Shown: positions 4,594-40,192 of the stretch, in pieces | Numbering within the stretch: the stretch's first letter is position 1 | Layout: the number at the start of each line of letters is the position of its first letter | Source: a virus | Virus record (IMG/VR): IMGVR_UViG_3300042691_050360 | Span: 64,001-128,000 of that record | Direction: 5' to 3' (one strand) | DNA: 64,000 bases | The notes under the pieces: generated by a model | Databases searched by the model: none | Told to the model about the DNA's origin: nothing | The model's input: only the letters and a program-made list of their open reading frames with translations | Program-made: the position numbers and the translations under genes

Positions 4594-5382
4594 ATGGCAT
4601 TACGAGCATTAAATTCAGTCGTGGCAGCTAACTACAGCAAGCTGTCTATCGATTCTGTTCTTGCTGGCGACATTGTAGCATTCTCGAACTCGGGGAACGG
4701 CACGGCAGTTAATCCTGCTTGTGTTTTCCGAGCTGACAGACATAATAGCAGTGCGGCAGGCTTCACAGGACCGGTTCAAACTATCACTAACCTTTTGCGA
4801 GGTTTAATCGTTGGCGTGTGTGCGGACGACGCAGTAGGTAACAACCCTGCGGGCGAAACCCCAACAATGATCAACAACGACCCAGCGGGTTCCAACTTCG
4901 TCAATGGTAGTGCTTTCCAAAGCTACACCAATGGATTCTATGTTGGAGTTAAGCGAGCAATTGCTGACTTCAAGGACGAGTCTGTTGACGTTGTTACCAA
5001 CCTCACGGCAGGTATTCCTACCTATTCTTCGAGAGGCGTTACCGTTTACACCACACCTTCGTCGCAATTCGTTACTGACCGATTCGCACTTCTTACCGCA
5101 CAAAATGCTGGTAATGACCTAGCAAACTGGACAGGCACCACTGGCAGCACTGCTCCAGCACCTGGCGACCTTCTGACTGTTGGAGCGAGTAACGGCCAGG
5201 CTACGTCTGTGGCTGCAGCTTATGCTAACACAGCTCAAGCACCAACTGTTACCGGAGCTACCTCTGGTACAAACAACCGAGGACTTCTTGTCTCAGCAGC
5301 AACAGCAACCGCTGTTCCTGTTATTGGACGAGTAGACTTCTACGACTCAGGAGCAGGATTGCTTTACTGGACGTTGATCTAA
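4594..5382 (+). CDS. Putative capsid decoration/cement or minor head protein
   Basis: 262 aa, A/G/T/N-rich, strong SD AAGGAG, immediately upstream of the capsid gene; PAPGDLLTV and VIGRV motifs resemble decoration proteins. Confidence 0.5.
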   Translation: MALRALNSVVAANYSKLSIDSVLAGDIVAFSNSGNGTAVNPACVFRADRHNSSAAGFTGPVQTITNLLRGLIVGVCADDAVGNNPAGETPTMINNDPAGSNFVNGSAFQSYTNGFYVGVKRAIADFKDESVDVVTNLTAGIPTYSSRGVTVYTTPSSQFVTDRFALLTAQNAGNDLANWTGTTGSTAPAPGDLLTVGASNGQATSVAAAYANTAQAPTVTGATSGTNNRGLLVSAATATAVPVIGRVDFYDSGAGLLYWTLI

Positions 5383-36281: not shown

Positions 36282-36356
36282 TGGCACCGGAGTTGGGGTT
36301 CAAACCCAAGCGATAAGGTTTTGGAGACCTTTCGGAAGCAATCTACTCTCTCCGGT
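36282..36356 (-). tRNA. trnW: tRNA-Trp(CCA)
   Basis: Anticodon arm aaggt-CTCCAAA-acctt; encoded CCA; atypical D arm. Confidence 0.75.
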
Positions 36357-36359
36357 GTA

Positions 36360-36434
36360 TGGAGCTCATGGCTAGAATCGAACTAGCTACATTCCTTTTG
36401 CAGAGGAAGCCGTTTGCCAATTGGGTACATGAGC
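36360..36434 (-). tRNA. trnC: tRNA-Cys(GCA)
   Basis: ttcct-CTGCAAA-aggaa; U discriminator; CCA. Confidence 0.9.
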
Positions 36435-36441
36435 TTAAATC

Positions 36442-36515
36442 TGGGAGGAAATGAAAGAATCGAACTTTCATCAGAGGCGTATGATACCTCCGCTTTACCA
36501 TTAAGCTAATTTCCC
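36442..36515 (-). tRNA. tRNA-Met/Ile(CAT)
   Basis: gaggt-ATCATAC-gcctc; cloverleaf with CCA. Confidence 0.8.
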
Positions 36516-36521
36516 GTAAAA

Positions 36522-36596
36522 TGGTATCCACGCTTGGATTTGAACCAAGAACCTCAATCTTGTAAGGATTTTGCTCTACCGTTGAGCTACGCGGAT
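36522..36596 (-). tRNA. trnV: tRNA-Val(TAC)
   Basis: aatc-CTTACAA-gatt; CCA. Confidence 0.85.
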
Positions 36597-36600
36597 GGAC

Positions 36601-36698
36601 TGGCACCCATTCATGGATTCGAACCACAATTAACTCTTCCTTACTGGGCACCTTGATGCACAGAAAAGAGAGTTGTCCTGCCTTTAGACGAAATGGGT
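36601..36698 (-). tRNA. tRNA with 24-nt anticodon-loop insertion, most likely Gln(TTG); Glu or Lys alternatives
   Basis: Intact acceptor, D and T arms; stem actct/agagt encloses 31 nt; removing 24 nt can give CTTTGGA. Confidence 0.65.
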
Positions 36699-36784: not shown

Positions 36785-36811
36785 TGGAGGAGGGAAGAGG
36801 TTTCGAAACTT
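36785..36811 (-). pseudogene. 3' fragment of a tRNA (T loop to CCA)
   Basis: ttcgaaa-cctct-tccctcc-t-cca without a 5' half; abuts the endonuclease ORF. Confidence 0.55.
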
Positions 36812-37508
36812 GGTATATGTAAATATGCTGTCAAACAACATTACTAGAGAGTTCCTACAAAAGTTCAAGTCCCGTGAAAGAGTGCCTTTAGTGTGTTTCG
36901 TATGTGGCGGAGATTTTTTACGCCCTAAAAACGATCTACTAAATTCTTTATCCTTGGGACGTAATATAGTTTGTCAAAGATTATGTGGATATAACCACTG
37001 GTTGCTGGCAACCAACCGAGGTAAGGATCATTGTGTTTGCCAGGTATGTGGCACTGAATACGTCAGATCACGATCTCAAGTGGCGAGAACTCCAAATAAG
37101 TTTTGCTCTAAATCTTGCTCAGTAACGTGGCAAAACAAACACAAAACCACCGGTTACCGACGTTCCAAACTTGAGAAGTATCTTGAAGAAAAGATTCGCA
37201 AAGAGTTTCCAGCTTTACAGTTTGAAGCTAATTGCCGGTCTGTCATTGATTACGAACTTGATTTCTATTTTCCGACTTTGAAGTTCGCAATAGAAGTAAA
37301 CGGGATTACGCACTATCGTCCTGTTTACAGCGAAGCCCGGTTCAAGCGTACAAAGGAGATTGACGCTGAAAAGAAATTACGTTGCAGTGAACTAGGTATC
37401 ACCTTGTATGTGATACCTAATACCATTCATGCCTTTACAGCTGAATTCGGGGATATAACATGGAGTGAGATGCTGGATTCAGCTGTAAGCCCGCTACGGC
37501 CTACTTAG
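36810..37508 (+). CDS. Zinc-finger plus PD-(D/E)xK (Vsr/DUF559-like) endonuclease, probable homing endonuclease in the tRNA array
   Basis: CFVCG, CQVCG, FCSKSC; SKLE...ELDFYFP.LKFAIEVNG..HY; antisense to the tRNAs. Confidence 0.75.
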   Translation: MVYVNMLSNNITREFLQKFKSRERVPLVCFVCGGDFLRPKNDLLNSLSLGRNIVCQRLCGYNHWLLATNRGKDHCVCQVCGTEYVRSRSQVARTPNKFCSKSCSVTWQNKHKTTGYRRSKLEKYLEEKIRKEFPALQFEANCRSVIDYELDFYFPTLKFAIEVNGITHYRPVYSEARFKRTKEIDAEKKLRCSELGITLYVIPNTIHAFTAEFGDITWSEMLDSAVSPLRPT

Positions 37509-37821: not shown

Positions 37822-37913
37822 TGGAGCGAGATGAGAGATTCGAACTCTCAAAATCTGCTTCCTGTAATGAGATCACAGGAAGGCAGGCGTTTTACCATTA
37901 AAACTAATCCCGC
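37822..37913 (-). tRNA. trnG: tRNA-Gly(TCC) with 17-nt anticodon-loop insertion
   Basis: GCGGGAT acceptor, U discriminator; cctgc-CTTCC[tgtgatctcattacagg]AA-gcaga. Confidence 0.8.
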
Positions 37914-37918
37914 TCACT

Positions 37919-37938
37919 TATTTAATTGTCAAAGAACA
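37919..37938 (-). promoter_or_regulatory. boxA-like element between terminator and first tRNA of array 1
   Basis: tgttctttgacaattaaata; ttgacaattaaata is identical at 40051..40064. Confidence 0.5.
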
Positions 37939-37942
37939 TAAT

Positions 37943-37976
37943 AAAAAAACCCCGAAGATCTTGCCTTCGGGGTTTT
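37943..37976 (-). terminator. Attenuator terminator upstream of tRNA array 1
   Basis: aaaaccccgaag-gcaagat-cttcggggttttttt. Confidence 0.9.
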
Positions 37977-38002
37977 GGTGAAATTTTTGTTAAAGAAAAA
38001 TT

Positions 38003-38065
38003 CTAGCCATTACCCTGAAGGGTTGACCACATAAAGCATCCTTGACTAAATTGCGAATTTCTCAT
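38003..38065 (-). CDS. Leader peptide 1 (MRNSQFSQGCFMWSTLQGNG) of tRNA array 1 attenuator
   Basis: SD AGGA 9 nt upstream; codons 4-14 match downstream tRNAs; its ccttcagggt is complementary to the terminator 5' arm. Confidence 0.8.
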   Translation of the reverse strand: MRNSQFSQGCFMWSTLQGNG

Positions 38066-38084
38066 TGTTATATTTCCTATGTTA

Positions 38085-38117
38085 ATGTTATACGCATTAA
38101 CTACCTTCTTTGTTCCG
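38085..38117 (-). promoter_or_regulatory. Candidate promoter for tRNA array 1 (GGAAC-N17-CGTATAA, ECF-like)
   Basis: ggaac-aaagaaggtagttaatg-cgtataac. Confidence 0.5.
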
Positions 38118-39454: not shown

Positions 39455-39531
39455 TGGTGGAGCCGACGGGGTTCGAACCCGCAAGACTTCTGATTGCAAA
39501 TCAGACGCTTTCCCAAATAAGCTTCGGCCCC
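39455..39531 (-). tRNA. trnA: tRNA-Ala(TGC)
   Basis: tctga-TTTGCAA-tcaga; G3-U70 pair; CCA. Confidence 0.92.
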
Positions 39532-39537
39532 GAAAAC

Positions 39538-39614
39538 TGGTCAGTTAGGTGAGATTTGAACTCACACACCTTTGAGTCACAATCAAAGGGCTCTACCATT
39601 TAAGCTACTAACTT
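39538..39614 (-). tRNA. trnH: tRNA-His(GTG)
   Basis: tttga-TTGTGAC-tcaaa; CCA. Confidence 0.85.
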
Positions 39615-39617
39615 GTG

Positions 39618-39694
39618 TGGTGTCGTGTGAAAGACTCGAACTTTCAAATTTCAGGTTCTCAACCTGTTGCCTCTACCAATTTGGCTAACACGAC
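39618..39694 (-). tRNA. trnL: tRNA-Leu(GAG), short variable loop
   Basis: cagg-TTGAGAA-cctg; CCA. Confidence 0.85.
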
Positions 39695-39697
39695 GTT

Positions 39698-39777
39698 TGG
39701 TACCAGCGGCGAGATTCGAACTCGCAAAAGCTACGGTTCTAAACCGTATTGTTGTACCATTCACTTGCCACGCTGGT
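39698..39777 (-). tRNA. trnL: tRNA-Leu(TAG), short variable loop
   Basis: tacgg-TTTAGAA-ccgta; CCA. Confidence 0.85.
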
Positions 39778-39785
39778 AGAAATCT

Positions 39786-39870
39786 TGGTGGAGACAGTAG
39801 GACTCGAACCTACGAACCGATTAAAGCACTGGGTTACAGCCAGTTGTAATTGCCGCTATACGATGTCTCC
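39786..39870 (-). tRNA. trnY: tRNA-Tyr(GTA)
   Basis: actgg-CTGTAAC-ccagt; long variable region; CCA. Confidence 0.9.
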
Positions 39871-39879
39871 AGAAAAACT

Positions 39880-39958
39880 TGGTCTGCGTGACAAGATTCG
39901 AACTTGTGTGCTTGACCTCCCAAGGGCCACGAGGTAGACCAGACTCCTCAACACGCAG
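39880..39958 (-). tRNA. trnP: tRNA-Pro(TGG)
   Basis: tggcc-CTTGGGA-ggtca; C1-G72; CCA. Confidence 0.88.
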
Positions 39959-39967
39959 ATAAATTTT

Positions 39968-40049
39968 TGGCTGGATGAAGGTCGTCCTTAGTCATCCACT
40001 TACGGGTCACCACTTTGGAGAGTTTGATTTCAACCCTGGCACCACCCCG
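39968..40049 (-). ncRNA. Unclassified structured RNA ending in CCA at the head of tRNA array 2
   Basis: Hairpin tggatga..aagg-acga-ccttcatcca followed by GCCA; not a cloverleaf. Confidence 0.35.
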
Positions 40050-40071
40050 ATATTTAATTGTCAATGTTCGT

Positions 40072-40112
40072 AAAAGAAAAACCCCCGAAAGATTTTAGTC
40101 CTTCGGGGGTTT
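40072..40112 (-). terminator. Attenuator terminator upstream of tRNA array 2
   Basis: aaacccccgaagga-ctaaaa-tctttcgggggtttttctttt. Confidence 0.9.
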
Positions 40113-40138
40113 GCAGCTTGTCGATACGCAACGAGCCA

Positions 40139-40192
40139 CTACCCCGAAGAGGGGGCGAGTGCTGGATATAGATGGCTGAGCGTATTGATCAT
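40139..40192 (-). CDS. Leader peptide 2 (MINTLSHLYPALAPSSG) of tRNA array 2 attenuator
   Basis: SD AGGA upstream; codons 7-12 CAT CTA TAT CCA GCA CTC match the six downstream tRNAs; cttcggggt pairs with the terminator 5' arm. Confidence 0.88.
   Translation of the reverse strand: MINTLSHLYPALAPSSG

Follow-up and report, generated by a model that had tools for sequence, protein, structure and literature searches.

When a short open reading frame precedes an array of tRNA genes and appears to spell out, codon by codon, the tRNAs encoded behind it, the question arises: does such a frame sense the supply of these tRNAs and control their synthesis? This question is posed by leader 1, which lies in front of tRNA array 1 on the minus strand of an uncultured phage. 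The window, that is, the whole stretch of 64,000 nucleotides that was analysed, belongs to a linear virus record of 166.5 kb (GC 38.5%, estimated completeness 46%) and carries two tRNA arrays, both on the minus strand. Here we argue that leader 1 is, quite probably, a ribosome-mediated transcription attenuator of the trp/thr type that responds to shortage of the tRNAs under its control, both its translation and its regulatory action being inferred.

No close relative of the window phage was found among annotated GenBank phages or via two neighbouring proteins, and PHROG searches with ten large window proteins returned next to no matches; no member of the RtcB and RNA_ligase families was detected in the contig, whose completeness is merely ~46%. 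Relatives were obtained from motif scans and through the inter-array protein, and include a syntenic relative of 347 kb (L013).

Leader 1 and the array behind it

The frame quoted in a preceding sequence-only reading, in which the strand was missing, is indeed present, on the minus strand (as are all features below unless stated otherwise) at 38065-38003, with 20 codons followed by TAG. Its anatomy can be observed directly: a Shine-Dalgarno-like AGGA (38075..38078), conserved in relatives, lies 9 nt upstream of the ATG, and the frame is open in six of six relatives over 20-22 codons with a conserved core G-C-x-x-W-S. Further upstream, a putative -10-like promoter element (38085..38095) was identified from sequence and alignment, its function being inferred; it is also found before the leaders of six relatives and before other tRNA genes of the phage group.

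Codons 4-14 (38024..38056), which we consider the sensor, match the Ser(TGA), Gln(TTG), Phe, Ser(GCT), Gly(TCC), Cys, Met and Trp tRNAs of array 1, with Gln being inferred, so that the 11 codons correspond to eight tRNA species, three of them represented twice. The claim of eleven consecutive matches holds only if Gln is accepted; otherwise, nine of the 11 codons are matched and the longest run is six. As had been noticed, Val(TAC) has no codon in the leader, and the same applies to a gene called Ala(CGC) (36776-36705). The codon run withstood comparison with 200,000 random ORFs drawn with the codon usage of the phage: with Gln, a run of at least 11 has P=5e-6 and 12/19 hits have P=3e-4, and, without Gln, a run of at least six has P=9e-4 and the representation of seven of nine species has P=0.002.

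The sister cassette (39455..40192) consists of leader 2 (40192-40139), a terminator (40112-40079), a boxA-like site (40068-40051) and array 2, which encodes Pro, Tyr, Leu TAG, Leu GAG, His and Ala TGC; all six tRNAs have a codon in a single run, codons 7-12 of leader 2 (P=2e-4). In the cross-controls, leader 1 against array 2 and leader 2 against array 1 gave P=0.96 and P=0.78, respectively. Each leader of the window matches its own array and not the other.

In array 1, Phe, Ser(TGA), Val, Met and Cys were called by ARAGORN or Rfam, and Gly, Ser(GCT) and Trp were assigned by manual inspection, with which the ARAGORN calls for relatives agree at the corresponding positions. The first gene, Gly(TCC) (37822..37913; Rfam), is interrupted between positions 36 and 37 by a hairpin insert of 17 nt (37877-37861), which is lacking in the Gly(TCC) genes at the equivalent position of L013, L717 and L718. 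It is followed by Phe(GAA) (37813-37738), Ser(GCT) (37730-37640), Ser(TGA) (37636-37549), a decayed Ser(GCT) copy (37540-37461) and, beyond the Ala(CGC) gene, an insert-bearing tRNA for which Gln(TTG) is the preferred reading (36601..36698), with Val(TAC), Met(CAT), Cys(GCA) and Trp(CCA) at 36282..36596. A homing-endonuclease-like ORF (36810-37508, plus strand, antisense within the array; PHROG 559/9084) adjoins the decayed Ser copy and is not present in the arrays of the relatives.

Several peculiarities of these tRNAs deserve separate mention. The atypical tRNA for which Ala was called has an acceptor stem that is irregular and lacks G3-U70. It is conserved in the window, in L013 (9743-9816) and in L717, its anticodon varying between CGC and TGC, and an Ala codon is absent from every leader 1; possibly, this tRNA is not used in translation. 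The hairpin inserts of the Gly and Gln-like tRNAs, of 17 and ~25 nt, pair with the anticodons of their own tRNAs; they are kept, with compensatory changes, in L715 and L716 and are missing in L013, L717 and L718. With their anticodons masked by such inserts, the Gly and Gln tRNAs may be incapable of decoding unless processed. Finally, other tRNA genes of the phage group (Met-Glu, Asp-Asn-Thr, Lys, Arg) are located immediately behind a -10-like element without an attenuator (genome 462-616; L442-L445) and, hence, only a part of the tRNA set is gated.

The assignment of the insert-bearing tRNA to Gln, which had been conceded to be partly circular, now has independent support, although it remains an inference. 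An intact Gln(TTG) gene occupies the equivalent position in four relatives (L013, L717, L718 and, as far as sequenced, L719). Upon removal of one insert, only the TTG and TTT readings are conserved across the window, L715 and L716; G37 is found in 12 of 47 Gln(TTG) genes among the loci collected here, as compared to none of 46 Lys(TTT) and none of 40 Glu(TTC) genes; and the top-scoring tRNA body for this gene is that of Gln. Judging from these comparisons, Gln(TTG) is the best reading but not a proven one because the body, common to the window, L715 and L716, differs from the Gln of the four relatives and is not orthologous to it, and because the D arm is Glu-like. The Lys and Glu readings are disfavoured, not excluded.

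Leader and array also change together among the close relatives. Leaders with an Ile codon are followed by arrays with Ile(GAT), and both are absent together, which represents one lineage split; L717 has neither a Val codon nor a Val tRNA. The window and L715 have kept the Val tRNA without a Val codon, and the leader of L716 is identical to that of the window, though its array ends before Val, Met, Cys and Trp. Since this leader is unchanged after the loss of four tRNAs, codon matching can lag gene loss. The match between leader and array among relatives is strong, not obligatory.

Downstream of the Gln-like tRNA, the L716 array is cut short at a 7-nt identity of the 3' ends of the Gln-like and Trp genes, and the truncation is consistent with either a recombination deletion or misassembly. 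Near the array and an amidase gene, an aminoacyl-tRNA-protein transferase (ATE_C, PF04377) is encoded in L717 (1-36) and L718 (1177-1962), and a barnase-like PF00545 ribonuclease gene is found two genes upstream of array 2 in L718 (7094-7519) and L720 (2400-2822).

The predicted RNA switch

The end of the leader can fold in alternative ways. The 1:2 hairpin of the protector/pause type (38005..38028; -8.1 kcal/mol) is kept in all six aligned relatives. Region 2, the 5' strand of the antiterminator (38007..38021), lies within codons 15-20, and the proposed pairing of 9/10 nucleotides was reproduced between 38021-38012 and the 5' arm of the terminator at 37973-37964. The helix gains three further inward pairs and an inner hairpin, reaching -18 to -22 kcal/mol when the inner helices are counted. 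Its partner, the terminator 5' arm (37978-37964), belongs to the intrinsic terminator, or 3:4, hairpin (37946..37976; -18 kcal/mol), with a U-tract extending to 37942. Among the relatives, the terminator shows two compensatory pairs, and the antiterminator is possible in six of six (-14 to -21 kcal/mol), with the register differing between lineages.

Behind the terminator is a boxA-like element (37922..37938), identical at 14 of 17 positions to the boxA of the E. coli rrnH leader, with which flanking positions outside the search pattern also agree. It resembles an rrn-type boxA in that it heads an untranslated RNA operon, the binding of NusB/NusE and antitermination being only inferred. A conserved TTGACA was considered as a -35 box and rejected: the first tRNA follows 5-32 nt later, and a 5/6 match to a -10 box is found in only 1 of 35 cases; the boxA-like element of the window likewise lies too near the first tRNA for a -35 role.

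In a footprint model, the transcript was folded before the 3' arm of the terminator emerges, with all RNA made unavailable from its 5' end to 13 nt downstream of the first A-site nucleotide. When the ribosome stalls at codons 2-11, the terminator arm pairs with upstream RNA at a mean probability of 0.75; this value decreases to 0.56 at codon 12 and 0.33 at codon 13, and does not exceed 0.21 from codon 14 on, where the matched codons end. Thus, co-transcriptional folding under footprint constraints, which the sequence-only reading had proposed as a check, has the antiterminator forming only with the ribosome at codon 13 or earlier. The same step is obtained for leader 2 and for the L715 leader, and E. 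coli thrL, the positive control, yields 0.75, falling to 0.5 at the last regulatory codon. In the truncated model without a ribosome, the antiterminator forms, too. In the full-length equilibrium fold, the terminator wins in every ribosome state (P 0.96), as it does in thrL (1.00); therefore, the equilibrium energy is unfit for judging the competition of the antiterminator, and the switch must be kinetic. Inasmuch as the antiterminator excludes the terminator and its 5' strand would be covered by a ribosome near the stop codon, the arrangement conforms to an attenuator, albeit by computation only.

The following cycle can be envisaged. A host ribosome would load, as we infer, on leader 1 behind the RNA polymerase. 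As long as decoding of the Ser, Gln, Phe, Gly, Cys, Met and Trp codons is fast, the ribosome should, in the model, arrive at codons 14-20 and cover region 2, so that the 3:4 hairpin forms and transcription ends at ~37945. If any of the sensed aminoacyl-tRNAs is scarce, the modelled ribosome would pause at codon 13 or earlier, and region 2 would capture the 5' arm of the terminator before the 3' arm is made, allowing the polymerase to read through; such kinetic read-through is itself inferred. The boxA-like site would then probably load host Nus factors, shielding the untranslated tRNA transcript from Rho, which is likewise an inference. With the array tRNAs reading the sensor codons, the result would be a negative feedback loop, an OR gate with about eight tRNA species as inputs. 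The physiological trigger, again inferred, is likely to be the loss of functional host tRNAs in infection, through cleavage or over-demand.

Recurrence at unrelated loci and competing explanations

If this design is functional, is it confined to one phage? Viral, metagenome and genome collections were scanned for a terminator, a boxA-like site and a tRNA T-loop, with the leader not being used, which yielded 76 distinct sites in 44 clusters. An ATG-initiated ORF ends shortly before the hairpin in 38 clusters, the gap between stop codon and hairpin being 20-30 nt in 29 of the 38; a Bacteroidota Thr-Tyr-Gly-Thr tRNA cluster has the hairpin and the box and no leader. The codons were then compared in 35 independent clusters with at least two tRNA species, where the leader was picked by a rule blind to the array. 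The match to the own array has a mean z of 2.60 (100,000 permutations: sd 0.21, maximum 1.02; P below 1e-5): 54% of the sensor codons are read by the own array vs 27%, 92% of the array species have a leader codon vs 55%, and the own array ranks first for 20 of the 35 leaders. No match is seen in about four of the 35.

The covariation of codons with arrays depends on both frame and position. The other frames and the other strand of the same nucleotides give z values of 0.35, -0.14 and 0.00, and the match is strongest 9-13 codons before the stop, declining to 0.10-0.27 in the last four codons. For the 3' end of the leader, the pairing energy is -16.6 kcal/mol with the terminator arm of the same locus vs -10.8 with the arms of others. 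Particular loci illustrate the range: in L015, Gln and His codons precede Gln(CTG), Gln(TTG) and His; in L473, all 16 sensor codons are read by a 12-gene array; and, in L182, a leader with nearly all amino acids is followed by a 27-gene array. The L015 phage also has a second attenuator (L440 ~5030-5290, G002), the 40-codon leader of which matches ~18 tRNAs spread over more than 17 kb downstream.

One family (L725-L779, GTDB MAGs) comes from 35 genome assemblies, nearly all of Acidobacteriota, and comprises a leader, a terminator and a Trp-Met-Ile-Lys-Arg-Val-Ile-Gly array with an Ile(TAT) gene and the matching ATA codon in the leader. These arrays adjoin an HNH gene and, on contigs of up to 1.3 Mb, sit amid ordinary bacterial genes; hence, the system is not confined to phages. 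In L779, the leader is kept, and the 3' arm of the terminator and the array are lost. At the level of sequence, then, the combination of leader, attenuator and tRNA genes recurs in dozens of unrelated phages and soil bacteria.

The alternative that fares best, which we still regard as unlikely, retains the attenuator and assigns it another natural signal, namely amino-acid starvation or a general translation slowdown rather than loss of particular tRNAs, so that codon matching would merely tune the sensor to the right amino acids. To a stalled ribosome, uncharged and absent tRNAs are indistinguishable, as is established for the trp, his and thr leaders. Moreover, isoacceptor preference is modest (73/109 vs 60.5 expected, z 2.6, uncorrected for GC or kinship), and some leaders contain synonymous codons not strictly read by the isoacceptor of the array. 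However, extra tRNA relieves tRNA loss, not amino-acid starvation, and where arrays encode both Ser classes, both Leu classes (leader 2) or tRNAs for both Gln codons (L015), the leaders list both.

It is much less plausible that the terminator merely damps expression, being constitutive and leaky, and that the leader is either a relic or codes for a small peptide with a function of its own. The victory of the terminator at equilibrium and the discord between leader and array in L716 would fit such an arrangement, but the peptides, which have no common sequence across clusters, nevertheless correspond to their arrays, in frame and with a constant spacing relative to the stop codon, and antiterminator complementarity is locus-specific. 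Direct pairing of tRNAs with codon-like triplets of the leader RNA, without a ribosome, hardly merits consideration: T-boxes are known to gate a terminator via codon-anticodon pairing, but no Rfam T-box match was obtained in the window, even with E up to 1, the Stem I specifier loop and the T-box bulge are not in evidence there, and the observed match requires a frame open from ATG to stop, many contiguous codons and the spacing of a ribosome footprint. Coincidence, with some short ORF happening to match an array of ten genes, could be defended on the grounds that 20-24% of codons are read by the array, that the run was delimited after the fact and that Gln is inferred. It is refuted by the blind comparison across the 35 clusters with its frame controls, and the P value of ~1e-3 without Gln and the second, independent match in the window also speak against it.

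What the attenuator might be for bears on the long-open question of the purpose of phage tRNAs, for which codon bias, host tRNA decay and anticodon nucleases have been considered. Since the sensor spells out the tRNAs that it controls, demand-driven backup is implied, and a single reporter could put this to the test. We are inclined, with considerable reserve, to go further and to see here an unpublished, widespread class of attenuators by which phages and mobile bacterial arrays survey the host tRNA pool one codon at a time and replenish just those tRNAs that are depleted, an inducible countermeasure to tRNA-cleaving immunity and toxins; if so, the leader sequence would reveal which tRNAs are threatened in a given host. 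The leader codons also help to annotate odd tRNAs, as with the Gln call here, and the leader could serve as a compact biosensor for tRNA depletion.

Relation to known attenuators and tRNA arrays

The open literature (subscription journals being outside the scope) yielded no description of tRNA genes under leader-peptide attenuation, and a genome-wide attenuator survey does not mention it (PMC2965389). In L-arrays and the Anabaena trn operon, tRNA genes form mobile arrays that frequently include a homing endonuclease and are expressed under translational stress (PMC8421152); the terms 'attenuat', 'leader' and 'boxA' are absent from the text of that paper. Array 1 shares with them the mobile character and the homing endonuclease, the difference being that the trn operon is controlled by a protein repressor, TrcR, which acts at initiation (PMC10272220).

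Leader 1 resembles T-box riboswitches in that tRNA status controls a terminator via codon-anticodon logic. Unlike leader 1, T-box riboswitches bind tRNA directly, without a ribosome, and sense uncharged tRNA, which must be present. Some of them are predicted upstream of tRNA genes in Firmicutes. In E. coli, the pheST attenuator, with its pheM leader, provides leader-peptide feedback on a single amino acid, the output being a synthetase; leader 1 would similarly exert leader-peptide feedback on aminoacyl-tRNA supply, but with tRNA as the output and several species involved.

The closest likeness is to the multivalent attenuators of enterobacteria (thrL for Thr/Ile, the ilvGMEDA leader for Ile/Leu/Val) and to trpL, hisL and pheL, all with a short leader ORF, 1:2, 2:3 and 3:4 pairings and a U-tract terminator; both window leaders give weak, below-threshold matches to the Rfam His_leader. 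As in the trp, his and thr systems, a short ORF with a ribosome-binding site lies between promoter and genes, an intrinsic terminator precedes the genes, and regulatory codons related to the operon product lie just upstream of region 2; as in thr/ilv-type leaders, the last sensor codon is about six codons before the stop. In contrast to the leaders of amino-acid operons, the genes controlled are tRNAs, with no amino-acid biosynthesis or synthetase genes; the codons, instead of tandem runs for one to three amino acids, are mixed and mostly single, with one or two copies of about eight; and a boxA-like site follows the terminator in a phage-borne system. Classical attenuation is thereby extended to a circuit that closes on tRNA itself and can have as many as 20 inputs. 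Taken together, these comparisons place leader 1 as working like a multivalent attenuator of the thr/ilv type, which is neither a member of the amino-acid-operon leader families nor a T-box.
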